The notes beneath the pieces were generated by a model. That model was not told the origin of the DNA. It saw nothing but the letters and a program-made list of their open reading frames with translations, and did no database searches. From sequence record PZ445446.1: DNA of 64,000 nt. One strand, given 5' to 3'. The translations under genes were made by a program, and so were the position numbers. Below, piece by piece: positions 2,785-54,201 of the stretch. Origin of the DNA: a phage. Numbering within the stretch: the stretch's first letter is position 1; every line of letters begins with the position of its first letter.

Positions 2785-3825
2785 ATGTCAAAACCTAGTT
2801 TTCCATTAGAGATTTGGGCAGAGGAGGATCAGGTTCTGCCTAACACCCACAGACAGAACAGGCTACGCCCGATTGATGATTTGTGGAGAAAAGGTTGGGA
2901 TCTTGGTCAAAAGCCCTCATGTGAAGAACTTAACTATATTTTCAATATGCTCGGAACTTGGGCAAAATACATTGCTGACGAGCAGATCCCCGCTCAAGAA
3001 GGCCGTTATCTGGTACGTGATAATAACTTGAGTGATCTTTTGAACATTCCTGTTGCCCGTAGAAACCTTGGGATTATTACTAAGGAAGAGGCAGACGCCA
3101 GGTATGTAAAAGTTACAGGTGATACAATGACAGGCCCATTGGGTTTGCAACGTATCAACTTTAAAGCTGCCGAGTCAGATAAGGCTTGGATAGAGACAAC
3201 TATTGGCCCAGATAAGACAACTCTCGACTTTGGGTTAAGTGATAATACCGGGTCGTTTGATGATGGTGGTACATCTACAGTGGATGCGTTCCGTTGGAGA
3301 TTCCAGCCAACTCAGCCGGATATTAATCCAGAGTTCACTTTGATGTACCTTAACGCGATCACGGCTAACCGTGCGCTGTTGAAAGTGGTAGGCAATGTTG
3401 AAGTTGTCGATAACATGAGGTGCAATAACCTTACTATCAGCAATACAGCGACATTCACCAACTGTAATGTGGCTAGTCAGTTGACGGCTGGGTCAGTGTA
3501 TGTTAATGGTGGTGCAAGTTGTGACAGTATGGTTGTAAGAAGCCAGCACTGTGTTGTCGGTAACAGAAATGTGGTTCGCTCTGTGAACGGAGTGACGGCT
3601 AACGGTAACGGTGATGTAACGATCACTATCCCGCAGACAGGTGTGCAAGACATCAGAATCGGTGCAAGACTTGTGGACGGAGTTTCTGAATCTCCAATCC
3701 GCAACGGCTACGTTGTCACAGGCTGGCATTTCGGTGACAAAAAAGAGATGCGTGGTTCAACCTACTGGGCAGGACCTTTACAAAAACTTGTAAATGGTCA
3801 ATGGATCACTGTTAATTATGCATAG
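2785..3825 (+). CDS. tail fiber protein (paralog A)
   Basis: 346 aa; N-terminus (FPLEIWAEEDQVL) and C-terminus (QKLVNGQWITVNYA) conserved with ORF 4837-5883; G/N/T/V-rich repeats typical of fibers. Confidence 0.6.
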   Translation: MSKPSFPLEIWAEEDQVLPNTHRQNRLRPIDDLWRKGWDLGQKPSCEELNYIFNMLGTWAKYIADEQIPAQEGRYLVRDNNLSDLLNIPVARRNLGIITKEEADARYVKVTGDTMTGPLGLQRINFKAAESDKAWIETTIGPDKTTLDFGLSDNTGSFDDGGTSTVDAFRWRFQPTQPDINPEFTLMYLNAITANRALLKVVGNVEVVDNMRCNNLTISNTATFTNCNVASQLTAGSVYVNGGASCDSMVVRSQHCVVGNRNVVRSVNGVTANGNGDVTITIPQTGVQDIRIGARLVDGVSESPIRNGYVVTGWHFGDKKEMRGSTYWAGPLQKLVNGQWITVNYA

Positions 3826-4836: not shown

Positions 4837-5883
4837 GTGATGACTAAACCAGTTATCCCTCTTGATATTTGGGCCAATCAGGATGTTGTGCTTGAAAATA
4901 CGGGAGAGTTGAATAAATCTCAACCAAAAAAAGAAGAGAGATTGAAAGGTTGGGATATGACACAAAGAATGGCATGTGAAGTTGTTAACTTTGAACTTCA
5001 CATGCTTTCTGCGTGGTTGAAGCATTTAACAGAAGATGTTGTCCCAGGATGGGATAATAGATTCTTAAGGGTCACTAATAATCTAGCAGACGTTCCAGAC
5101 AAAGCTGCTGCACGTCAAGTTCTCAATGTATACTCACCTGAAGAAATGGACGATCTATATGTTGACAAGTCTGGAGACATAATGACTCAGACTCAAACTT
5201 TAGGTCTTCAAAGAATCGAGTTTGCATCTGCGTCAACAGACAGTGCGGCAATATATACCACCATAACTCCAGACAAGACGACGATGGATTTCTGGATTAT
5301 GGACAACATCGGTGGTGCTGACGGCACAGACCTTGATGATCCTTCTCACCAAATAGATGGGTTCCGTTGGAGATTTCAACCTTCTGGTGGGCAGCCTGTG
5401 TTTTCAGCTATGAAGCTCAATGCTATAACTGCCAACCGTGCAAGACTGGCTATCCAAGGAAATCTTGAATGCAACGATGCAAAAAGTTCCTCTGCAAATG
5501 CCAATGCGGTCACGATACCAAGAGCCACTGTTAATGGACAACAATCCTGCGGAAGCGCTCAAATAGGTGGAAGAGTTGATTGTAACGATGAAACCGTCAG
5601 GGGCCAATATGCAACAGTTGGTGGAAGAAACGTGGTCCGCAGGGTAAATGGTAACGGCGCAGACAGTAGCGGTAACCTTACTATCCCTATGCCTAGCAGA
5701 GGGGTTGATGATGTAAGGATAGCAAACCGTTTTAAAACCACCTACAGAGAGTCAAGAGTCTACCCTGGACATGTGATGTGCTCTGGTAACTACGCTTATA
5801 AACACCCTTATCAAGGTGATTACTGGACAGGTGCTATCCAAAAACTTGTAAATGGTCAATGGATCACTATATCTTATGCTTAA
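4837..5883 (+). CDS. tail fiber protein (paralog B)
   Basis: 348 aa; shares N- and C-terminal segments with ORF 2785-3825 (…QKLVNGQWITISYA), central region diverged. Confidence 0.6.
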   Translation: MMTKPVIPLDIWANQDVVLENTGELNKSQPKKEERLKGWDMTQRMACEVVNFELHMLSAWLKHLTEDVVPGWDNRFLRVTNNLADVPDKAAARQVLNVYSPEEMDDLYVDKSGDIMTQTQTLGLQRIEFASASTDSAAIYTTITPDKTTMDFWIMDNIGGADGTDLDDPSHQIDGFRWRFQPSGGQPVFSAMKLNAITANRARLAIQGNLECNDAKSSSANANAVTIPRATVNGQQSCGSAQIGGRVDCNDETVRGQYATVGGRNVVRRVNGNGADSSGNLTIPMPSRGVDDVRIANRFKTTYRESRVYPGHVMCSGNYAYKHPYQGDYWTGAIQKLVNGQWITISYA

Positions 5884-10900: not shown

Positions 10901-13603
10901 AACGCTGTCGACCCCTATATCATCATGAGTGATCTAAGATCGAACATGGATGGAACATCCATATCTATGCAAGTTCCGGTAACAAACGGATACAAGCGTG
11001 TTGTGATGATCATTAAGTGCGATCTGATAGGTAAGCAAGTTCTTGCAGAGAACGGAACTTCCACCCACCTATTTGAGACTGCTCTGCACTATCAGTTTGC
11101 TGATTCACCTTTTGCAGGGGATAAGAGAATATCTGACACAGACGCTGTGCGATGCAAGAAATTTATGCTAGGTGGTGGGTGGTGGTGGTATGAATTTGAC
11201 TTAACAGACAAATTCACCGACACGTCTAAAGTAGTGACGGGGCTTCGTCTAGACCTTGGCGAAAACATGCACAAAAGTGTTTGTGATGGCACCTACGGTG
11301 ACCCAACAATCTACTTAAAGTATGTCTCTTTTGAGCACCCAGAGGATGTTGTTTATGGTCCAAAACTGAGACTGTTTGGCAATTGGATTGCTAAAGACAG
11401 GGTAGGTATGGGCAAGAAGGTAAGAGGCTTCTTAATGGATGCCGGTACAGAGGACATGCTAGTCAATGCAGTGTGGCCTGAATTACCTGGGACTCAGTGG
11501 AACAACTCAGCCAAATCTATAAACTGGTTCAATATCCACAGGGCTATGTGGACAACCAACTGTTACCTGTGGAAAGAGCTGAATGACGGCGCTTTCGGGT
11601 TCACAGGCGGCAGAAGAATGGCAATCATTTGCTGGACAACGTTGCAAAGATGTTATGACCATGACTACGAGATTGGAGGTAGGGCATGGAAAAATATTAG
11701 GGATAGAATCATAACCAACTTTGCAGATCCTAACGGTGGTGGAGCGTATGGCTTCGACTGCAGCAGGCTCATCCATTTGAACGGATCCTCTGCCTACAAG
11801 AAAGAAGGTTACTCTGGGTCTATGATAGAATGGGGCCTGGTGAAAGATGCTCGCGTGCTGATGGGTCAACAACTTGCTGCTGCAATAGGTCCTAATGCAG
11901 TGCAATCTGTTAAACCTGCGTGGTTTGATATCCCATTGTGGTCATCCGGTACACCAGGAACTGCTGCAATCAACCCTACCACGGGGGATCTGGAAATCTC
12001 TTGGGAGGACTTGAAGCAGGTTGGAGGCTGGGATAAAACAGGGTATCAGGTCCAGTGGTGGAGGGCTGATGGATCTTTAGCCGCTGATGAGTTTGTTAAG
12101 GACAATTTCTACACCATGTCCTCTGCAAAAGCACAGCAATTATTTGGTCAGGCCACTCCGTCAACGATCACCATGTCTATGTGCTGTAAAGACAACAGGA
12201 CTGGAGCTTTGGGGCCAAGGGTTGCTAAGGTTTTCTCAGGTATTAAATGGAATCTCCCTGTTCAAAGTGTTTCATGGAAGCAAATAGGTGATAACAAGCT
12301 GCTGGTTACCCCTGCCTGTCAGTTCAACGCAACTCTTAACGTTGATCCTGCTGTTGCGGCAAACTCAGCTAAAGCTTCTGACTTCTCTGTGTCTAACACT
12401 GCTATGGCAGATGTGAGGAAGATTGACACACTGAACGCCAGAATTACCTGTAAAAACACTTATGGCACATTCCAAATCATCAACAACTTCACAGATGCTG
12501 ATTCTAAGGTAGTAAGGACAGCAAGCCAGACTCTGAGTTTAGGGACTCTGGCCTATGCGGCCCTGATCACCGAACAGTCGGCAACACTCCAAGGAGGCGG
12601 TGTAGGCAAGTCCATTGCAACACCTGTGTGGAAGCCGAATGAGTGGGTTGTGTTTGATTTGACTGTGGACTTCTCCAGTGATAATAACTGGACATGGGTA
12701 AGGAATTGTTTGTCACAGTTGATGGGCGGTCCAAGCTCCATTAGCGATAGTCACGACTCTACTGACCCGAGCGTGTTCCAGGTGGGTAAAACTCACCCAG
12801 AGACTGGAGAAACGTTGCCTGACAGGAAGTATGCTTTGGTTTGCATCTCTTACGGGAAGGCAGATGTCACCTTCTCAGGGACACACACTTATAACGGAAC
12901 CTACAACTTCTCAAGGAAGTATAGTCTCAAAGCAGGGAACATTGTAGACGAGGTTGGTGTGCTGTATAATCCAGGTAACGGCATAGGGATTGTGGGTGGT
13001 AAACTGCAGATGCAGGAACCTTCTATTACCCCTTCCAACGTATCCGGTATTAGAAAGACTTGGGAAAGTAGTAATACCAACATTGCAACAGTGGATGCTG
13101 CCACAGGGCTGGTAACATTTAAAGCTACTGGGAATGTCACCATAAAGTTTGTAGTTACAGATGATGCAGGGCGCAAAACGTCTTCAACATCTTTTACTGT
13201 CAAACAGATGGCACCACAGTGGAGAATGTGGATAGGTACAGCAACAAACGGGGCATACCCTAATCCGGCAGGTACTTCTGGTATGAAGACTTTCTCTACA
13301 AGCAAACCGATGGAGTACGGCAGCGGTCCTAAGGTAGGGCAGATGGTGTACTTTGGTGCGTATATTCCTGAAATTATAGGGCTTCCGAGAAGTCAGCTTC
13401 AGTTGCTGTTTGGGGCTGGTGTTGACGATCTTGCCACTTTCGGGTATAGCGACAACATCGAGGCTGCAAGGAGTTCAGGATGGGTAGGGTTCAGAATGGA
13501 GTCTGGAAAGGAAGGCAGGATTCTAGGGACAGCCTCTATAGGTGTTATGTTCCCTGGTGACCAGCAGTATCGTCTAGAAGCCTACGCAACCTTTTCTCGT
13601 TAA
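7967..13603 (+). CDS. giant tail-associated structural protein with Ig-like domain
   Basis: 1878 aa; beta-rich W/Y/N/G composition; C-proximal segment resembling bacterial Ig-like (Big_2-type) fold; followed by strong terminator. Confidence 0.55.
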   Translation: MLPIPLLKLGRHFLDKRGGIKELAVLSYPIDNSDGTSNTVSYVNSLAILFDDGQLNITGYNRFGECRTGDLDTINYPNEAAWNVDHVWRADRAFVIRTFDNKFFYIGCTAGLIGSEAAGGNDVCVREWTPLPEQIVTGLHLDTHPERLVEVMGGVNNTVWVIAAPEADGMLHLYGSGNNTYGSLHVDKNQHATPVKIGETSENPETGPWKNPSINCEVHDNSVIFGGPRGFWIAGYDFLRNNSRNDLVWPPVQITRNDLRGIPADEEWKGFMCGPNGAIIATQRMHRPDDQQLVNVFYGQNIWGDDTWRELNITYTHEVIMARGYGTSGIFFNNGTKQYRGFSRNLCNDIGAQSANNSPRSDFIHYQALATAKYVEQRLPVSWTESVYFQGIHREGFLGTFTVVNGKLWWSGIPRGSFAGSNNLFGGRLNSQGFTEVPENWYKNVPVDSWGVEDIFDVNGVSSVSNIYIGDTVKMKLKPQPEGATFIIDKIELVNAAGTVVTDANYQFSTNWNHGGANEVVVTQYNRNVNRRGLYSVKITYHDKHGTGRTHTTRTLNWNTIVPAYPSNGKWHTVGRNKQFHVNDTVYFGLNAAQPAVEGDTSYIVRLHRMDAGSVTYDVTQEIYDQRRTTYDNVVKTQALWEFNPNGRGGKMLQVNEQNGTSLTVHEHPDPWPDPGKPNSGARTLKIVSHDAGYFGIRWEATVRYADGTTNNIGITLDGTSEDNSLKIAYTPRGISIDNIDVVRNGYGDVNVKVTLGEHLGGERIIMYAFDHDPRTNGTYANQAWSYLINAPEPNTKEFYYGMKRDVCKKTGTHDWIAICVKDERTAWDEPVNRWFIGIPTRSDKYVAEYIVCMGGTNLNMCWNEDVNKYSDYDYMRDYSCNLWFNQTTGYPPRQARVNPAIFTDTQVFLTKQANEVQTFKNKYDPNKWFYNCYGAFFWGPGELPGGGSCFEAATYASDRFMGQVKKYKIIPGPETLGNAVDPYIIMSDLRSNMDGTSISMQVPVTNGYKRVVMIIKCDLIGKQVLAENGTSTHLFETALHYQFADSPFAGDKRISDTDAVRCKKFMLGGGWWWYEFDLTDKFTDTSKVVTGLRLDLGENMHKSVCDGTYGDPTIYLKYVSFEHPEDVVYGPKLRLFGNWIAKDRVGMGKKVRGFLMDAGTEDMLVNAVWPELPGTQWNNSAKSINWFNIHRAMWTTNCYLWKELNDGAFGFTGGRRMAIICWTTLQRCYDHDYEIGGRAWKNIRDRIITNFADPNGGGAYGFDCSRLIHLNGSSAYKKEGYSGSMIEWGLVKDARVLMGQQLAAAIGPNAVQSVKPAWFDIPLWSSGTPGTAAINPTTGDLEISWEDLKQVGGWDKTGYQVQWWRADGSLAADEFVKDNFYTMSSAKAQQLFGQATPSTITMSMCCKDNRTGALGPRVAKVFSGIKWNLPVQSVSWKQIGDNKLLVTPACQFNATLNVDPAVAANSAKASDFSVSNTAMADVRKIDTLNARITCKNTYGTFQIINNFTDADSKVVRTASQTLSLGTLAYAALITEQSATLQGGGVGKSIATPVWKPNEWVVFDLTVDFSSDNNWTWVRNCLSQLMGGPSSISDSHDSTDPSVFQVGKTHPETGETLPDRKYALVCISYGKADVTFSGTHTYNGTYNFSRKYSLKAGNIVDEVGVLYNPGNGIGIVGGKLQMQEPSITPSNVSGIRKTWESSNTNIATVDAATGLVTFKATGNVTIKFVVTDDAGRKTSSTSFTVKQMAPQWRMWIGTATNGAYPNPAGTSGMKTFSTSKPMEYGSGPKVGQMVYFGAYIPEIIGLPRSQLQLLFGAGVDDLATFGYSDNIEAARSSGWVGFRMESGKEGRILGTASIGVMFPGDQQYRLEAYATFSR

Positions 13604-13616
13604 CAAGGGGGTAAAT

Positions 13617-13646
13617 AAAAAGGGGCCAAACGGCCCCTTTCTTTTT
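13617..13646. terminator. bidirectional intrinsic terminator
   Basis: AAAAA-GGGGCC-aaac-GGCCCC-TTTCTTTTT between convergent genes. Confidence 0.7.
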
Positions 13647-13650
13647 ATAG

Positions 13651-13851
13651 TTAGTAATACTCCCAACATGCCCCATCTTCAGACGGCTTGACGCGCTTAC
13701 CTTTATGGTCAACATAGGTATAGCCACAACCTTCACAAATAACAGGTGCTGCATAGCCTTCCTTCCACTGATCCTCAGTGATCAATCCTTTCAGATCTCC
13801 GCAGTCACGACCAAACAACTCTTCAGAACAGTCTTTACAAAAATCAGCCAT
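13651..13851 (-). CDS. small zinc-ribbon protein
   Basis: 66 aa with CxxC…CxxC pairs (CKDC…CEGC). Confidence 0.4.
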   Translation of the reverse strand: MADFCKDCSEELFGRDCGDLKGLITEDQWKEGYAAPVICEGCGYTYVDHKGKRVKPSEDGACWEYY

Positions 13852-46160: not shown

Positions 46161-46489
46161 CAGAGATCATCGTTTCAACTGCAGGGTATGTATTCCTGAC
46201 AATCATTGCGTTGGCTATTCTGGTGGCGGTGTATGGATTTGTTATCCTGCCTATTCTTGAGACATTTAGCTTGTGTCGGTGTTGGAGAAAAGCTTACGGA
46301 CCACAACCGTGGAAAGACTGGTTTCATTTGGTGCGTATAGCGTTCTCTTATGCCTATGATCACTCCAGCAGTGCATGCGTAACCGGGTACCATGCCTACA
46401 ACTGGAACTGGGAAGGGCTTGGGAGATGGACTGTTACAAAAACTATACCCTTACGGTTGTATAAAGGAAAGAACACACTGGGAGCCTGA
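46157..46489 (+). CDS. membrane protein
   Basis: 110 aa; N-terminal hydrophobic helices (YVFLTIIALAILVAVYGFVILPIL). Confidence 0.45.
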   Translation: MTEIIVSTAGYVFLTIIALAILVAVYGFVILPILETFSLCRCWRKAYGPQPWKDWFHLVRIAFSYAYDHSSSACVTGYHAYNWNWEGLGRWTVTKTIPLRLYKGKNTLGA

Positions 46490-46799
46490 TATTTTAAGTT
46501 ATCAGATTGCCAGAGATCAGGAGGATTTCTAAAATGGATTTCCTCCTTTTGATATTTTACCTACCAGGATATTTTAAAATCCTTAGAAAATCAGAAAATG
46601 GATCGAAAACTAAAATGGATTTTTCAGAGCAGGCACGACGAGATGAACCACTCATCCTATCGTCTGCACCATATTCCAGACCACCATTACAGATTTCCCG
46701 CACATGCTCACACCCTTCTACTAGAACTTCCCCCACTTACCCTTGACCTTTTATAGTAATAATCCAACCACTACCTTGAAGTTGTGGCGCAGCTTTCCA

Positions 46800-46887
46800 A
46801 GTACTCGATCTGTTTTTCGTTTCAAAGATTGAATTTTCTGAAAATTTTTCTCGATAAATTTCTCAGTACTCGATCTGTTTTTCGTTT
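46800..46887. repeat. 23-bp perfect direct repeat pair (agtactcgatctgtttttcgttt)
   Basis: Copies at 46800-46822 and 46865-46887; partial third copy near 46947-46963. Confidence 0.65.
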
Positions 46888-47090
46888 TCTGAATCGGATT
46901 TTCTGGAAATCGTTCCGGCTCTCGACCTGAAATTTTTGGGGACGAAATCGATTTTTCGTTTTCAGAAATGGATTTTTAAAATTTCTATATGGGAATATTT
47001 TAGTGGATACTATTTTATAGGAAATTGTTACGGAGGATAATTAGCGTGCTAATTAAATTTATTAAATGCGAGGAGTTCTCATTTAGAATT

Positions 47091-48398: not shown

Positions 48399-48426
48399 TT
48401 GACACGCTGCAAAATTTAAGTAAACT
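48399..48426 (+). promoter_or_regulatory. sigma70-type promoter TTGACA-N16-TAAACT with leader hairpin
   Basis: Followed by GGCGGGAA/TTCCCGCC hairpin (about 48437-48455) before ATG 48476. Confidence 0.5.
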
Positions 48427-48475
48427 AGACACAAAAGGCGGGAATGTTTCCCGCCAGCACAAAGGAAAAAAGATC

Positions 48476-48871
48476 ATGAATAAGAACGTACGCCGCATCA
48501 TGAACGAACTGGCAAACGATGAAAAAATTATTGACATGCATTTAGTCAACATTTGCCGCCGTTGTGTAACATATAACAACCGCGCCGCAAAAGCGCGTGA
48601 GATGAACGCAAAAGGCACCTTAAAGCCCTTTCAGGTGGTTGTAAAATCTATAACCAGTGCAGCAGGCCAGGCGCATGACCACAACAACGGGAGCACTAAT
48701 ATTGATCCGTCTTACGTAATGAAACGGATCCGGACTTGCAAGAATAAAGAGCAGGTGTATAATGTCATAGACTGGTTGGATTCTATGGGCGATGTGGTTT
48801 ACAATAGGTTTTCTGCAGCTATCGAGATCCAGCTTGACAGGTTGGACGGTAAAGTACTGAAAACTTACTAA
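48476..48871 (+). CDS. hypothetical protein
   Basis: Internal ATG chosen because track start 48377 overlaps promoter and leader hairpin. Confidence 0.45.
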   Translation: MNKNVRRIMNELANDEKIIDMHLVNICRRCVTYNNRAAKAREMNAKGTLKPFQVVVKSITSAAGQAHDHNNGSTNIDPSYVMKRIRTCKNKEQVYNVIDWLDSMGDVVYNRFSAAIEIQLDRLDGKVLKTY

Positions 48872-48919
48872 GATTATTTTTAGATGGCCTTGACTTCAGG
48901 GCCATCAATAAAGTAAACT
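48872..48919 (+). repeat. 48-bp inverted-repeat element, copy 1 (GATGGCC-N10-GGCCATC with embedded TTGACT-N18-TAAACT)
   Basis: Starts at stop codon of 48476-48871; near-identical to copies at 49503 and 53243. Confidence 0.7.
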
Positions 48920-48951
48920 AATCCCAGTTAAGCGAAAAAGGAGGCTTGAAG

Positions 48952-49071
48952 ATGAGCACTACACGCCAACACACAAAGGTAACGATTATCGTTTGCATCA
49001 TTGGTTACATCCTGGCGCAAATGTTGATGGGTAGCGCCAATGATTTCGCAAAATTTTTCTTAGACTTTTAA
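48952..49071 (+). CDS. small hydrophobic peptide (39 aa)
   Basis: ATG after AAAAAGGAGG RBS, downstream of repeat element 1; hydrophobic core TIIVCIIGYILAQMLMG; absent from track. Confidence 0.35.
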   Translation: MSTTRQHTKVTIIVCIIGYILAQMLMGSANDFAKFFLDF

Positions 49072-49099
49072 TTGACAAGCTAACTTAAATCAGTATAAT
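49072..49099 (+). promoter_or_regulatory. sigma70-type promoter TTGACA-N16-TATAAT with leader hairpin
   Basis: Consensus hexamers; GGGAAAACTTCCC hairpin in leader before ATG 49152. Confidence 0.6.
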
Positions 49100-49151
49100 A
49101 CTAAGCACATAAACGGGAAAACTTCCCAGAACACCAAAAGGAGAAAACATT

Positions 49152-49502
49152 ATGAATACTTCCATCACTATGACCGCCGAAGAAAAAGCCCTGCAGATCG
49201 CCGCTCTGAAAAAACAGATTGCAGAACTTGAAGACAAGATCGACAATTTTGAAATCGACGAAGACAAGTACGACGATAAATATGATGAATGGTTAGACGA
49301 GATCTACGGCGAAATTATGATCGGAAACATTTCTTTTCTTCCGTCGCGTATCCTCAAGGAGCTAGATCCTATCGCTTACCGCTGCGGATTTAGCGACTAC
49401 ATCGACAGCCTGGATATTGAGGACGATGAAGAATACCAGGAATTACAGACAGAGTTAGAAGAAGCAAAAGAAGAGCTTGCAGAACTGGAAGAAAACGAGT
49501 AA
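49152..49502 (+). CDS. highly acidic protein (DNA-mimic candidate)
   Basis: 116 aa; Asp/Glu-rich, coiled-coil-like ends; TTGACA-N16-TATAAT promoter upstream. Confidence 0.5.
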   Translation: MNTSITMTAEEKALQIAALKKQIAELEDKIDNFEIDEDKYDDKYDEWLDEIYGEIMIGNISFLPSRILKELDPIAYRCGFSDYIDSLDIEDDEEYQELQTELEEAKEELAELEENE

Positions 49503-49550
49503 GATTATTTTTAGATGGCCTTGACTCCAGGGCCATCAATAAAGTAAACT
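49503..49550 (+). repeat. 48-bp inverted-repeat element, copy 2
   Basis: Immediately after stop of 49152-49502; identical core to copy 3. Confidence 0.7.
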
Positions 49551-49591
49551 TTATACTGTTAACACTGAACTAATGCATAGGAGTTAAAACC

Positions 49592-49837
49592 ATGGCAGCA
49601 CTAATCACCAAATATTATGCCCCTACCAACACCAAAAGCGCCCGTATCATGGTAAAAGGCTTCGGACGTAAAAAGGTGTACACCTGGGATTATGCCTTAG
49701 ACACGGAAGACAACTACACCAACGCGATGACCGATTTTATTAATGATCTGAACACGCGGATCTTGACAAATTATAAAATTACCGATATTGCCTATATAGG
49801 GGAAGGCGGGATCTGTTTTGTCGGTATCGTCAAATAA
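49592..49837 (+). CDS. hypothetical small protein
   Basis: 81 aa; downstream of repeat element 2. Confidence 0.5.
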   Translation: MAALITKYYAPTNTKSARIMVKGFGRKKVYTWDYALDTEDNYTNAMTDFINDLNTRILTNYKITDIAYIGEGGICFVGIVK

Positions 49838-49845
49838 GCTGTTTT

Positions 49846-49892
49846 TTCGGTGGTCCTGGTAGCAGGGCCATCTATAAAGATAGTTTATCAAT
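49846..49892 (+). repeat. degenerate fourth copy of inverted-repeat element
   Basis: ggtggtcctggtagcagggccatctataaagatagtttat keeps the 3' arm and AATAAAG-like tail but lacks TTGAC. Confidence 0.4.
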
Positions 49893-49912
49893 ACAATGAA
49901 AGGAGAAAGTAC

Positions 49913-50266
49913 ATGATCAGCGGGGCAAGTTTTATTATTGGCGCTATTGCTACGGCTTTAATTGTAAACAAGATCCAATCTAAAAACGAAAAAGATAGCA
50001 ACGCCCTTACAGAATACCCGTTTTGGGTATTCAACGACAATGAAGACTATATTATCAAGTACAAGAATGAGAAGGGCGACCAGGTAACACCGCGACCGAT
50101 CCCGGCTTACAAGATGCAAGAAACACTATACCGCCTAAAGGCTGGAGGCGCAAAAATCGTAGACTTTTGGGGATACGATCACACAGATCAGGAAGTTATA
50201 AAGCGCCGTATCCGGGCTATTCAGGCCAATATTGAAGTTAGCAAGGGGGGAATATATGAAGATTAA
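49913..50266 (+). CDS. membrane-anchored protein
   Basis: ATG after AAAGGAGAAAG; N-terminal TM (ISGASFIIGAIATALIV); track start 49850 trimmed. Confidence 0.45.
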   Translation: MISGASFIIGAIATALIVNKIQSKNEKDSNALTEYPFWVFNDNEDYIIKYKNEKGDQVTPRPIPAYKMQETLYRLKAGGAKIVDFWGYDHTDQEVIKRRIRAIQANIEVSKGGIYED

Positions 50267-50453
50267 TTTTGAGAAGATTGTAAAGCGATCTCATGCTTCC
50301 GAAGAGCTGCCGGAACGCCGCCAGCGCAACAATAAACTGAATAAGCCAAAAAGATTTGGGAAGATCTGGCGGAATCATTATGATCGCAAATTACCGGGCC
50401 TGCTTTTGGAACGTGAACGACAGGCGGAACGATACCGCCACAAAGGCAAATAA
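50256..50453 (+). CDS. hypothetical small basic protein
   Basis: ATG after AAGGGGGG; Arg/Lys-rich; followed by terminator. Confidence 0.35.
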   Translation: MKINFEKIVKRSHASEELPERRQRNNKLNKPKRFGKIWRNHYDRKLPGLLLERERQAERYRHKGK

Positions 50454-50462
50454 CAACCAACG

Positions 50463-50490
50463 CCCCGCCATTGTGCGGGGCTTTTTATTT
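50463..50490 (+). terminator. intrinsic terminator
   Basis: GCCCCGC-cattgt-GCGGGGC + TTTTTATTT. Confidence 0.65.
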
Positions 50491-50694
50491 CTATCCTACA
50501 AATAGCGCCCCTGGTTGGCCCTGTAAGCGCCAAAAAGGCCCCACCTATGCAATCGCCCCCCTTTAACCTGAAAACATCGCTTAGGGCCGTTTTATGGCGT
50601 TAAAAATATCATTGACAGTGATTTTATTTAAAGCTTGACATCTTAAACAGGTTAGCTATACTAACCACATCAAAGAGAGAAAGGAGTAAACGCC

Positions 50695-50943
50695 ATGCGT
50701 AAATTAAAAAATTTTGATAAAGTTGATGTTGTCCTGAATAATTTTTACTACTGCAACAACAAGGCCATTTGGTGGCGTGATAGTTCCACCGATAAAGTCA
50801 AGGCGCGCTTTCTCCAGGGGCACTGGCAAGGCCGCCCAGTGATTAAAATCATGGGGCAATTGGTAGCGTTTAAAAATTGCCGCCGTGTTGATGACGTTGA
50901 AGAGATCTTGAATATTTTACGCCACAATAATTTAAAAAAATAG
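50695..50943 (+). CDS. hypothetical small protein
   Basis: 82 aa; AAGGAG RBS. Confidence 0.5.
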   Translation: MRKLKNFDKVDVVLNNFYYCNNKAIWWRDSSTDKVKARFLQGHWQGRPVIKIMGQLVAFKNCRRVDDVEEILNILRHNNLKK

Positions 50944-50945
50944 TG

Positions 50946-50973
50946 TTGACAAGTAAATCTCAATAAGTATACT
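50946..50973 (+). promoter_or_regulatory. sigma70-type promoter TTGACA-N16-TATACT with leader hairpin
   Basis: Followed by GGCGGGAAGTTTTCCCGCC hairpin (50984-51002) before ATG 51031. Confidence 0.55.
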
Positions 50974-51030
50974 TAAGCACACAGGCGGGAAGTTTTCCCG
51001 CCACTAACAAAGAAAATAGGAGAAAATATC

Positions 51031-51654
51031 ATGACCACCGTTAACATTACCACAGGTTGCAATTTATCTTTCGACGTGCTGACCGATGAACAAAAAGAAA
51101 AAGCTATTGAAATGGTCCGCGAAAGAGAAGAACACAGCGGAGAGGATTTTTTCGCAGAAAGTGTAATTGAATATTATAAAGAACAAGTTTTTCCAGAGTA
51201 CGGCCTTGAAGATACCGATGTACATTGGTCCGGCTTTTGGTGTCAAGGCGATGGCGCGTCAATTAGTGCTGAAAATGTAGACTTAGAGAAATTCTTGCGT
51301 AAAGTCAAGGCCCTGACCAAGTTCCGATCAATTCGTCACTTGTTCGGAACAATGCACGATGGCGAACTATCAGCCAGTGTTGAACGCGACAAGTACAGCC
51401 ATTACAGCCATGAAAACACTGTAAGCGGATATATTGATACTACCTGGCTAGATCTGACCGCAAAACAAGAAAATAAAGTAGAAGATCTGGAAGAGCTGAT
51501 CACCGAGACGGTACGGGAGCTATCCCGCAAGGTTTATGTAGACCTGGAGGAGGCCTATCTTGAACAGTTTACTACCGAAAACCTGATCGGCCTTATTGAA
51601 GCCAATGATTGGCGGTTTGATGTGGATGAATATGGAGAAATGAGTTTTTCATAA
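51031..51654 (+). CDS. hypothetical protein
   Basis: 207 aa; promoter and leader hairpin upstream. Confidence 0.5.
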   Translation: MTTVNITTGCNLSFDVLTDEQKEKAIEMVREREEHSGEDFFAESVIEYYKEQVFPEYGLEDTDVHWSGFWCQGDGASISAENVDLEKFLRKVKALTKFRSIRHLFGTMHDGELSASVERDKYSHYSHENTVSGYIDTTWLDLTAKQENKVEDLEELITETVRELSRKVYVDLEEAYLEQFTTENLIGLIEANDWRFDVDEYGEMSFS

Positions 51655-51745
51655 ATAAAGTGTTGCAATAATCTAAAAACCTGCTATATTAAAACTTAAG
51701 GGGGAGAGATGACTTGCCCCCACACAAAACAAAGAGGAAAACATC

Positions 51746-52126
51746 ATGAAAAACACTACTAAAGCTATTGACACCGTTATGTTTAACCTGGTTACATTCC
51801 GTGAAGATATGAAAGATCTTCCACGTGAAACAGTGTGCGACCATATCGAAAACTATCGCAAACTAATCAAAGAGTTGCCTTTAAAACGTGACCAGTACGC
51901 GGCTAACGCTATGCTTAACGCCATGATCAAGAAAATGATTCAGTGCGATTTGACTTTAGCTTATGATTATGCAGGTGGTCGTTTTGCAGTATACAATCAG
52001 CCCGTGCCTGGTATGAGCACCACAGAAGAATTGCACGCGTTAAATCTAAAACAAGACGTATGGGATAACATGCCCCGCGTGGTGGTGTGGGCAGAAAGCG
52101 GAAAGATTTACGGCGATAATTTTTAA
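51746..52126 (+). CDS. hypothetical protein
   Basis: 126 aa; AGAGGAAAA RBS; terminator downstream. Confidence 0.5.
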   Translation: MKNTTKAIDTVMFNLVTFREDMKDLPRETVCDHIENYRKLIKELPLKRDQYAANAMLNAMIKKMIQCDLTLAYDYAGGRFAVYNQPVPGMSTTEELHALNLKQDVWDNMPRVVVWAESGKIYGDNF

Positions 52127-52135
52127 TCAGGTAAC

Positions 52136-52163
52136 AGGCGGCATATTTGCCGCCTTATTGTTA
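52136..52163 (+). terminator. intrinsic terminator
   Basis: AGGCGGCA-tatt-TGCCGCCT + TATTGTT. Confidence 0.55.
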
Positions 52164-52190
52164 AACAGAACTGCAAAAGAGGTACATAGA

Positions 52191-52562
52191 ATGGAATTTA
52201 TTATTTTGGCTGTAGTAGTTGCCTTGTTCAACGCCTGGATCGCTGGCAAGATGGGTAGATCCGCTTTTCTATGGTTTGTTATATCTATTTTCCTGGGAGT
52301 GGTTGCAACTATTGTATTGGTTATCCTTGCAATTGTTGACAAGGGGAATAATAGAAAGGGTAAAGTATTTTCAGACCTGTACGACGCTCAAACGTTTGTC
52401 AACGCCTATTATAGTGATCTTCCAGTCTCCCTACGCTGCAGCCTGGCACAACAGGTTTTTGATGAGGCTAAAACCAGAGACCAAGCCCATGAGATATGTT
52501 TAACTGAGGCGGATCGCCTATTTGAGAGGAATAGAAAATATGTGGACCAGCCGTTTAAATAA
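52191..52562 (+). CDS. membrane protein
   Basis: ATG after AAGAGG; two hydrophobic helices; track start 52158 trimmed. Confidence 0.45.
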   Translation: MEFIILAVVVALFNAWIAGKMGRSAFLWFVISIFLGVVATIVLVILAIVDKGNNRKGKVFSDLYDAQTFVNAYYSDLPVSLRCSLAQQVFDEAKTRDQAHEICLTEADRLFERNRKYVDQPFK

Positions 52563-52761
52563 TGCCACGTTAATTAACCCCTTTAGTGAAGATTTGAAGC
52601 CAGCCGCCTGGCGGGATGGATTCAATAACGAAAGCTTTATTTTCAGGCCTGATCTTAAGGAATTTTATAACAATGGATCGAACAACGACAGAGATAATTT
52701 TTCTTGTAATGTGCGTGGTGATAATACTCCTGGGGGCCATTGCAAACCACGTCACTGCTAA
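52540..52761 (+). CDS. hypothetical small protein (uncertain)
   Basis: ATG after GAGAGGA, overlaps upstream gene 3' end; alternative frame 52616-52798 also open. Confidence 0.3.
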   Translation: MWTSRLNNATLINPFSEDLKPAAWRDGFNNESFIFRPDLKEFYNNGSNNDRDNFSCNVRGDNTPGGHCKPRHC

Positions 52762-52781
52762 CAGGAGGAAAGGGGGAGACG

Positions 52782-52901
52782 ATGACACCCAAGGATAAGC
52801 CCCGCACCGATAAGGCGCGCCGTGTTATGGTATGGCTTGAGATCATCGCCCTTGAAATATTGTTAGGCGTAGGGATGTATTTTATCGCTGTAAGTAACTG
52901 A
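52782..52901 (+). CDS. small membrane peptide (39 aa)
   Basis: ATG after CAGGAGGAAAGGGGGAG RBS; hydrophobic WLEIIALEILLGVGMYFIAV; absent from track. Confidence 0.4.
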   Translation: MTPKDKPRTDKARRVMVWLEIIALEILLGVGMYFIAVSN

Positions 52902-53040
52902 TAACGGCCCCGATCCCTGGGGCCTAACTTTTCAAATTTTTTCTCCCTGAGTGTTGCAATCCGATCCAGAATATGGATAATAACAATCAACGGGGAGACA
53001 CTCCCCACCGCATAGACAAAGTTCCAAAAGGAGAAACAAA

Positions 53041-53241
53041 ATGAGCAACAATATCCGCGTTATTAACTTCAAAAAAGAAGAAAAAATTGCCGTGCTGATT
53101 GACGGTCAAGAAATCTTTAAAGGTGATTATGAAGATCATCAAACGGCGATTAGTATCACTCGCGTGATTGGTTACCATAATTTTTACCCTCAAGGCGCTG
53201 AGGCAGCAGTAAAACGAATTAAAGAGATTGTAGGCCTGTAA
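53041..53241 (+). CDS. hypothetical small protein
   Basis: 66 aa; AAGGAGAAA RBS; followed by repeat element 3. Confidence 0.45.
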   Translation: MSNNIRVINFKKEEKIAVLIDGQEIFKGDYEDHQTAISITRVIGYHNFYPQGAEAAVKRIKEIVGL

Positions 53242-53242
53242 A

Positions 53243-53290
53243 ATTTATTTTTAGATGGCCTTGACTCCAGGGCCATCAATAAAGTAAATT
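53243..53290 (+). repeat. 48-bp inverted-repeat element, copy 3
   Basis: Immediately after stop of 53041-53241. Confidence 0.7.
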
Positions 53291-53332
53291 TAAACCCTGT
53301 TAAAATAATCAGTGCAAAAAGGAGTAATGATC

Positions 53333-53649: not shown

Positions 53650-54000
53650 ATGAAAGTAAAACTATATTACCTTAATGAGCTTAACCCCCTTGCCCAGGTC
53701 CGCGCCCTGGCTAATACCTTGATTTGTGAGAAATCTGTATATTGTGTTGAGCTTAACGCCATGCGTGAACGTCTCAAAGGTGGTTACTTTGACATCCATG
53801 CTGCAATCAACGGCCTGAATATGGAATTTATCCGCTTACGTAACAGCCGCCAGAATCTGGCAAGAATGGAACAAGATCCGGCCCACCTTCGTAAGCTGGT
53901 TATTGAAAATCATCTGATGTTTAATGCCGATGGTGATTATTACCATTTTCACCGCAAACGCTGGTACCGTGGCGGCAATACAGGCAAGAATGCAAAATAA
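53650..54000 (+). CDS. hypothetical protein
   Basis: 116-aa ORF followed by hairpins and terminator. Confidence 0.5.
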   Translation: MKVKLYYLNELNPLAQVRALANTLICEKSVYCVELNAMRERLKGGYFDIHAAINGLNMEFIRLRNSRQNLARMEQDPAHLRKLVIENHLMFNADGDYYHFHRKRWYRGGNTGKNAK

Positions 54001-54037
54001 GGCCCCAGGCAGGGCCTGCAGCGATATAATCACATAA

Positions 54038-54070
54038 AGGCTATGCGGTTGCATGGCCTTTATTATTTTA
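54038..54070 (+). terminator. intrinsic terminator
   Basis: AAGGCTATGC-ggtt-GCATGGCCTT + TATTATTTT. Confidence 0.55.
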
Positions 54071-54201
54071 GCGTTACAGCGGCCCCAAGGCGCTTAAAAA
54101 ATTTTTAAAGAAGTACTTGCATCAAGTCCTACAATATGGATAATAGGACGTGTCAGGGGGGCGGCCCCCAATCATTAACCGGATAGATAGGAGTTAAAAT
54201 C

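Follow-up and report, generated by a model that had tools for sequence, protein, structure and literature searches.

The repetitive extragenic palindromic (REP) sequences and bacterial interspersed mosaic elements (BIME) of Escherichia coli are imperfect palindromes repeated within operons, and can stabilise the mRNA upstream of them. Phage T7 carries RNase III sites between the cistrons of early operons that are transcribed by the host RNA polymerase; these sites are dispensable. The E. coli RNase III target defined by Pertzev and Nicholson is an 11-bp helix reaching from the scissile bond to the tetraloop, within about two helical turns of continuous or quasi-continuous double-stranded RNA, and an internal loop limits the enzyme to one strand so that a protective 3' hairpin remains (PMC1540722). 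Promoter-early stem-loops (PeSLs) have been described in T4-like phages only (the T4-type phages RB49/phi1, PST and nt-1), with dozens of copies per genome; they begin at the stop codon of the upstream gene and continue through an AT-rich tract, a G-T-paired stem-loop that may overlap the -35 box, a -10 box and a Shine-Dalgarno (SD) sequence to the ATG, and provide near-consensus, very strong promoters whose stem-loop acted as a terminator in a reporter (PMC2839356, Arbiol 2010; PMC4122927, Comeau 2014). Here we describe a family of four intergenic hairpin elements in a 64,000-nucleotide stretch of phage DNA (sequence record PZ445446.1; hereafter the window), which derives from an rV5-like myovirus of the genus Vequintavirus (genome size ~136 kb) and shares 99.2% identity with Escherichia phage MaxBurger across the 7 kb compared. 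We put a probability of roughly 0.55 on the elements being intercistronic RNase III processing and stability signals of the T7 type in early polycistronic mRNA. The element appears to be undescribed for Vequintavirus, and is not listed in the rV5 genome paper, including its promoter and terminator table, while the kinds of phage element to which it belongs are already known.

A first-pass annotation of the window had reported three near-identical 48-bp intergenic elements at 48872-48919, 49503-49550 and 53243-53290, together with a degenerate copy near 49846-49892, and all four were recovered here. A repeat finder returned a single four-member, 51-nt family in register, with starts at 48869 (copy 1), 49500 (copy 2), 49835 (copy 4) and 53240 (copy 3) and with 98%, 69% and 90% identity to copy 1 for copies 2, 4 and 3, respectively. 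The 24-nt core GATGGCCTTGACTYCAGGGCCATC occurs at 48883-48906, 49514-49537 and 53254-53277, against no match in 100 shuffles. In a 54-nt frame the copies occupy 48869..48922, 49500..49553, 49835..49888 (the diverged copy 4) and 53240..53293, all on the + strand, and score 81.3, 81.2, 71.6 and 80.5 bits with a family covariance model built from the four copies. This model was run on the window and on the remaining 75 kb of the MaxBurger genome and detected no further copy in either, giving exactly four in the whole genome, all on the + strand and inside 4.4 kb; the reverse strand of the elements reaches about half the + strand score. As originally described, the stop codon of the upstream gene directly adjoins every element (4/4; TAA at 48869-71, 49500-02 and 53239-41 for copies 1, 2 and 3, and the stop at 49835-37 for copy 4), and the next start codon follows 30-45 nt 3' of each. 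The proposed search of relatives was also productive: by BLAST with the 60-mer, 120 phage records contain the element, every one of them Vequintavirus and most showing three sites, copy 4 being too diverged to be seen by this method. A scan of viral_contigs with the 14-base core GGGCCATCNATAAAG gave single unrelated chance matches and was not used. Two 'UNVERIFIED Campylobacter phage' records, which are rV5-like coliphage genomes, are linear and begin within or exactly at a copy of the element (MG065666.1, positions 1-26 of our locus L128; MG065654.1, positions 1-54), likely reflecting an assembly break at the repeat; 17 such 'Campylobacter' records have >93% identity to this E. coli phage.

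As RNA, the + strand folds into a 10-bp upper stem (GAUGGCCUUG/CAGGGCCAUC), which contains one U.G pair and carries a 4-nt loop, a 2x3 internal loop (2 nt on the 5' side, 3 nt on the 3' side) and an A-U-rich lower stem of 7-9 bp whose 5' strand begins just past the stop codon. The 7-bp arms first noted are perfect in copies 1-3 but understate the pairing available to RNA, and the 48-bp extent, although it marks a real element, omits part of a larger two-part hairpin that measures about 47-54 nt with the outer A-U helix included. In copy 1 the lower stem pairs 48872-80 with 48910-18 and the upper stem 48883-92 with 48897-906, enclosing the loop ACTT (48893-96), with AAT (48907-09) as the 3' internal loop. 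The upper stem of copy 2 pairs 49514-23 with 49528-37 and that of copy 3 pairs 53254-63 with 53268-77 above a 9-bp lower stem; copy 4 forms 9+10 pairs with the loop GTAG and the 3' internal loop TAT. Folding energies on the + strand are -19.6 to -20.9 kcal/mol (z -4.4 to -5.8), against -13.6 kcal/mol for the reverse strand.

Sequence changes between copies preserve this fold. Among the four paralogs, four lower-stem pairs are altered on both sides and three upper-stem changes are one-sided, each yielding a G-U pair. Extending the comparison to the syntenic regions of 14 relatives gave 56 + strand copies (33 distinct) from 15 genomes, in which pairing is kept in 98.1% of cells compared with <=57% when partners are slid by 1-3 columns. 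Double changes account for 30 cells at four lower-stem pairs, a number reached in 0/500 shuffles, while the upper-stem changes are again all one-sided and G-U compatible; the exceptions to pairing are one U.U, one C.A in a chimeric copy and a deletion in copy 1 of phage Gotham. Among the 33 distinct copies U9.G46 is invariant and U22.G31 nearly so, and these wobbles work on the sense strand only, because the antisense strand or a DNA palindrome would have A.C mismatches in their place. Although it is 31% diverged and lacks TTGAC, copy 4 still folds in the same way, and its arms match at only 5/7 positions as DNA while all positions pair as RNA through G-U.

The same observations bear on a proposal of the first-pass annotation, that the elements form a shared promoter/operator set bound by one dimeric regulator. 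In this explanation a phage or host regulator would bind GATGGCC-N10-GGCCATC over the -35 box and co-regulate the three downstream genes, and it draws on the perfect 7-bp arms over a -35-like hexamer in copies 1-3 and on a putative transcriptional regulator encoded by the phage. Shared operator/promoter function is disfavoured because copy 4 keeps the fold while losing the hexamers and retaining a DNA palindrome of only 5/7, and the hexamers themselves occur near chance frequency (see below). With copy 4 arms at 5/7 and the strand asymmetry, symmetric DNA half-sites are not found in all copies; the 17 bp between half-site centres do not make up complete helical turns, the score of the reverse strand is about half that of the + strand, and a second, A-U-rich helix conserved through compensatory changes would be superfluous to an operator. 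We regard a DNA operator as very unlikely. The other suggestion of the first-pass annotation, an RNA hairpin processing site, is instead favoured by the strand-specific G-U pairs, the compensatory changes and a gapless match to the RNase III sites of T7.

Nucleotide diversity among 12-15 genomes indicates where selection acts on the element. Diversity per site is 0.008-0.013 in the upper stem compared with 0.09-0.21 at the third positions of flanking codons, 0.06-0.17 in the remainder of the spacer before the ATG and 0.10-0.25 in the loop of the hairpin. Variability of the upper stem is therefore 10-20 times below that of neighbouring third positions, and the loop is free to vary, so selection is on the helix and not on the loop. 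These data need to be set against an explanation of the elements as functionless scars or linkers of cassette insertion, kept similar by gene conversion and forming hairpins only incidentally. Recombination between copies does occur: in phages magaca and ECP26 a single hybrid copy joins the sequence found upstream of copy 1 to that found downstream of copy 2. The ~630-bp cassette that separates these copies elsewhere, a 39-aa and a 116-aa gene with a promoter between them, is missing from both phages, which demonstrates that the element is a recombination junction. Copy 4 of phage V18 is chimeric, its halves and flanks coming from different lineages, and in Gotham a 5-nt deletion (GGGCC) in copy 1 (4879-4927 of our locus L002) takes out the 3' arm of the upper stem and is tolerated. 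Absence of function would, however, leave unexplained the low variability of the stem, the compensatory and wobble changes that preserve pairing across paralogs 31% diverged, and the retention of all four syntenic copies in nearly all of the 120 genomes, and we consider it highly improbable.

We compared the elements with T7 directly. Since the T7 RefSeq record NC_001604 carries no RNase III site features, we worked from cleavage coordinates that we take to be correct and that were reportedly published by Dunn and Studier in 1983. All of the early and late sites so placed fall within intergenic gaps of NC_001604, and the coordinates were further cross-checked by their folds and by the 11-bp, GCAA and U.C description (PMC1540722). 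When folded, T7 R0.3, R0.5, R1, R1.1, R4.7 and R18.5 each form an upper stem of 9-10 bp that includes G-U pairs, a loop of 3-5 nt and a 3-nt 3' internal loop (UAU, AAU or CAU) that ends at the cleavage bond and is followed by a lower stem. With a covariance model built from T7 only (7 sites, 51 positions), the four elements rank 1-4 in the 64-kb window, all on the + strand and without gaps over 51/51 positions, at 21.8 bits (E 0.0087) for copy 1, 21.8 (E 0.0086) for copy 2, 21.7 (E 0.0094) for copy 4 and 24.8 (E 0.0013) for copy 3, these E-values being rough because of a short calibration and the four matches being paralogs rather than four independent observations. Background sequence scored no higher with this model than 12.9 bits (the other 75 kb of the genome) and 11.4 bits (41 kb of phage PVP-SE1). 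The reciprocal search of T7 with the element model gave a single match of 11 bits which, although not significant, is the true R1 site.

The shared features go beyond the fold. In both phages the sites are intercistronic in early operons of the host RNA polymerase (apparent operons in the case of the element), lie on the sense strand and are present as several sequence-related copies per genome, and the upstream stop codon adjoins the lower stem or, as at several T7 sites, sits inside it. Both combine a 9-10-bp upper stem containing G-U, a 3-5-nt loop and an asymmetric internal loop with (U/A/C)AU, in the same UA/UG register. They differ in that no primary-sequence homology is detectable, that the lower stem of the element is almost pure A-U, and that the element belongs to an unrelated myovirus without its own RNA polymerase, in which RNase III cleavage is a prediction. 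The element also agrees with the dimensions of an RNase III substrate: 10 bp, the 2x3 internal loop and 7-9 bp amount to about 21-22 stacked positions, or two turns, and the 11 positions from predicted cut to loop comprise 10 pairs and an A.A mismatch (C.U in copy 4, as in R1.1), a register shared by the six T7 sites. RNase III tolerates any tetraloop sequence but requires a distal box of UA then UG, the UG pair stringently (PMC1540722), and copies 1-3 have U23-A30 and U22.G31 there in 23/24 distinct sequences. The 4-bp proximal box bars G-C at positions 2 and 4 and has the consensus GC; AU/UA; AU; AU/UA or mismatch (PMC1540722); in the element, position 2 is A-U (G.U in copy 4) and position 4 is a mismatch, both of which are acceptable.

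Several points weigh against an RNase III site, besides our assumption of the T7 coordinates, the rough E-values and the paralogy of the matches. The main reservation at the level of sequence concerns positions 1 (U-A) and 3 (G-C) of the proximal box, which differ from the R1.1 optimum (G-C and A-U), since changes from that optimum at these positions lower binding of a minimal substrate (PMC1540722); C-G at position 3 of T7 R1 is also off consensus. In copy 4, distal-box position 1 is U-A but position 2 is C-G and not U-G, a combination like that of T7 R0.5. Loop bases A25 and C26 are constant in copies 1-3, which a -35 box would explain and a pure hairpin model does not, and the loss of the 3' arm from Gotham copy 1 means that at least that copy is dispensable. 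A literature search for Vequintavirus transcriptomes and for transcript-end or cleavage data returned nothing usable.

RNase III binding can be uncoupled from cleavage (PMC1540722), and the non-consensus positions 1 and 3 could accordingly mean binding without cutting. This leads to an explanation in which the hairpin is read by something else, either as a REP-like passive barrier to 3' exonucleases or as a site for a phage-encoded RNA-binding regulator, with no RNase III cleavage; such a regulator could be an antiterminator or a translational or stability factor. All of the RNA-level evidence (fold, covariation and selection) is shared with this explanation, and the 3' arm plus ATAAAG (CAGGGCCATCnATAAAG), which is identical across the diverged copy families, could reflect sequence-specific protein contact. 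An exonuclease barrier, however, needs neither a conserved lower helix nor a fixed 2x3 loop or UA/UG register. The element does resemble REP and BIME in being an imperfect palindrome repeated within operons, but REPs lack the two-part helix and the features of the RNase III register, and BLAST against 5,426 E. coli genomes found no match to the element, which is therefore neither host-derived nor REP-like. Rfam at a permissive threshold returned only noise, with best overlapping matches of 22-23 bits against thresholds of 50-80, so that no Rfam family is indicated. We judge another reader of the hairpin to be rather improbable.

For RNase III processing we envisage the following mechanism. In sense-strand early mRNA, each copy would fold into an interrupted hairpin of about two turns directly past the upstream stop codon, which host RNase III would recognise as it does T7 R0.3, R0.5, R1, R1.1, R4.7 and R18.5. 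One cut would be made, on the 3' side of the internal loop (...CAUC(A/U)AU / AAAG...), and by analogy with T7 the predicted cuts after AAU or UAU are at 48909|48910, 49540|49541, 49875|49876 and 53280|53281; both the identity of the enzyme and the exact position of the cut are what we infer from that analogy. Cleavage would leave the upstream cistron with a stable 10-bp hairpin at its end as a block to 3' exonucleases, and would free the downstream cistron or cistrons as a separate RNA with its own fate. As a side effect, possibly a selected one, the 54-bp direct repeats offer crossover points for the loss or gain of early-gene cassettes. Under RNase III processing, the first cistron of three early operons is expected to show differential stability. 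Confirmation would mean that the T7 way of segmenting early transcripts of the host polymerase arose in an unrelated myovirus, would provide four compact natural RNase III insulator parts and would pinpoint the junctions for gain and loss of early accessory-gene cassettes in a genus whose rV5-like members find wide use in therapy and biocontrol and are represented in the BASEL reference collection.

The promoter-like sequences noted initially, TTGACT followed after 18 bp by TAAACT or TAAATT, are indeed present in copies 1-3 (hexamer score 9/12), whereas copy 4 lacks TTGAC and has no -35 box. Matches of 9/12 are near chance frequency (35 found against 22.8 +/- 4.7 expected per 10 kb), and a promoter class defined by TTGACN-18-TAAAYT was rejected as not enriched outside the three copies (5 found, 3.7 expected). 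An intrinsic terminator was likewise rejected: the first annotation had remarked that neither strand carries a U-tract and that the element is no simple terminator, and the 3' flank AAUAAAGU has no U-tract, which rules out this class, nor does a terminator scan list any element on either strand. In the annotation of phage EdH4 there are five terminators nearby and none at the element sites. Across copies 1-3 of the genomes compared, all four bases occur at the sixth position but TTGAC itself never varies, and for this reason a weak sigma-70 promoter overlapping these copies is possible.

These findings are pertinent to a PeSL-like composite cassette, in which the hairpin would attenuate transcription from upstream and TTGACN-18-TAAAYT would restart it as a modest sigma-70 promoter. 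The T-rich tract upstream would act as an UP element and the promoter would serve the downstream gene. Both element and PeSL are repeated in ORFan-rich early regions and run from upstream stop codon through AT-rich tract and G-T stem-loop to SD and ATG, an anatomy that fits the published description, and recombination between copies deletes or inserts open reading frames in both, as seen here in magaca and ECP26. The constancy of TTGAC also fits, PhagePromoter calls two of the three Gotham copies promoters (a software prediction only), and in T7 promoters adjoin RNase III sites (NC_001604), so both functions can coexist. Against this, the element has weak hexamers with an 18-bp spacer at near chance frequency, keeps its fold in a copy without a -35 box, and is present in four copies per genome rather than dozens. 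The genuine promoters of the region have scores of 10-12/12, 16-17-bp spacers and a GC-rich hairpin in the 5' untranslated region (UTR), which the elements lack. Termination by a hairpin without a U-tract would be weak, and a role in transcription only leaves the long two-part structure, with its conserved and compensated lower A-U helix, unexplained. A PeSL-like cassette is in our estimation possible but unlikely. We also consider it possible, though not likely, that the elements are dual-purpose mobile regulatory linkers of a non-T4 myovirus, which may combine a convergent T7-type RNase III signal with a weak promoter and, being 54-bp direct repeats, a preferred crossover point for the excision, loss and exchange of early ORFan cassettes among Vequintavirus lineages. 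If so, the PeSL concept would reach beyond T4-like phages and be linked with RNA processing instead of termination.

In the region of the repeats every gene is a small ORFan on the + strand, and a Pfam search with the 10 proteins flanking the elements found no family. The layout of promoters and terminators places the elements between cistrons within apparent early operons, which would be transcribed from sigma-70-type promoters. The first unit runs P48399 - gene - copy 1 - 39-aa gene - P49072 - gene - copy 2 - gene - copy 4 - two genes - T50462. Its promoter (TTGACA-16-TAAACT with a GC-rich 5'-UTR hairpin; 48399..48455, + strand) is the likely start of a transcript passing through copies 1, 2 and 4 to a canonical intrinsic terminator of 7 G-C pairs followed by TTTTTATTT (50462..50481, + strand). 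The cassette between copies 1 and 2 (48923..49499, + strand) comprises, on the same strand, the 39-aa gene (48952-49071), a consensus sigma-70 promoter (49072-49099), a 5'-UTR hairpin (49114-49128) and the 116-aa gene (49152-49502). The second unit runs P52954 - gene - copy 3 - two genes - T54034, and comprises a promoter-like TTGCAA-16-GATAAT with a 5'-UTR hairpin (52954..53010, + strand) 5' of the 66-aa gene that precedes copy 3 (53041-53241, + strand), and a terminator-like 13-bp hairpin with a U-rich tail (54034..54063, + strand), 3' of the gene at 53650-54000, which closes the unit. The fifth-ranked match of the T7 covariance model (54020-54077; 17.2 bits, E 0.16), AUAAAGGCUAUGC-GGUU-GCAUGGCCUUUAU then UAUUUUAG, reads as a 13-bp intrinsic terminator, yet its 3' arm GGCCUUUAU agrees exactly with the consensus of the T7 sites.

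Each of the strong sigma-70-type promoters here carries a short GC-rich hairpin ~10-15 nt past the -10 box (e.g. CGGGAAAACTTCCCAG and GGCGGGAAGTTTTCCCGCC), which would occupy the 5' end of the transcript. Further examples lie at 50946-51003 and 51663-51720, and promoter plus 5' stem-loop looks like a recurrent module resembling the PeSL subclass with the stem-loop downstream of the -10 box, the hairpin possibly being mRNA-stabilising. The gene between copies 2 and 4 (49592-49837) encodes an 81-aa protein with distant homologs, at 31-47% identity, that are confined to Pseudomonas and Klebsiella phages and to unrelated siphoviruses such as CAjan and slur01, with none in other Vequintavirinae genera, which suggests a horizontally exchanged early gene flanked by two elements; the phages of these homologs yielded no additional element copies. 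Neither covariance model detected an analogous hairpin in the early region of PVP-SE1, a Seunavirus (another genus of the same subfamily).

Other repeats were found elsewhere in the window. A stretch of ~600 bp at ~46450-47090 lacks annotated coding sequences in relatives and probably corresponds to the box labelled 'non-coding' in the rV5 paper. Within it are three 47-57-nt direct repeats (46791-46976) at a spacing of 65-74 bp and many copies of an (A)AATGGATTTT-like motif; the stretch could be an origin, an iteron set or a regulator-binding array. PVP-SE1 has a comparable 2.2-kb gap without coding sequences (11551-13793 of our locus L140). In the tail-fibre gene region, two pairs of 26-62-nt direct repeats (3283-3824 versus 5356-5882), ~2.06 kb apart and with 84-88% identity, suggest paralogous fibre domains.

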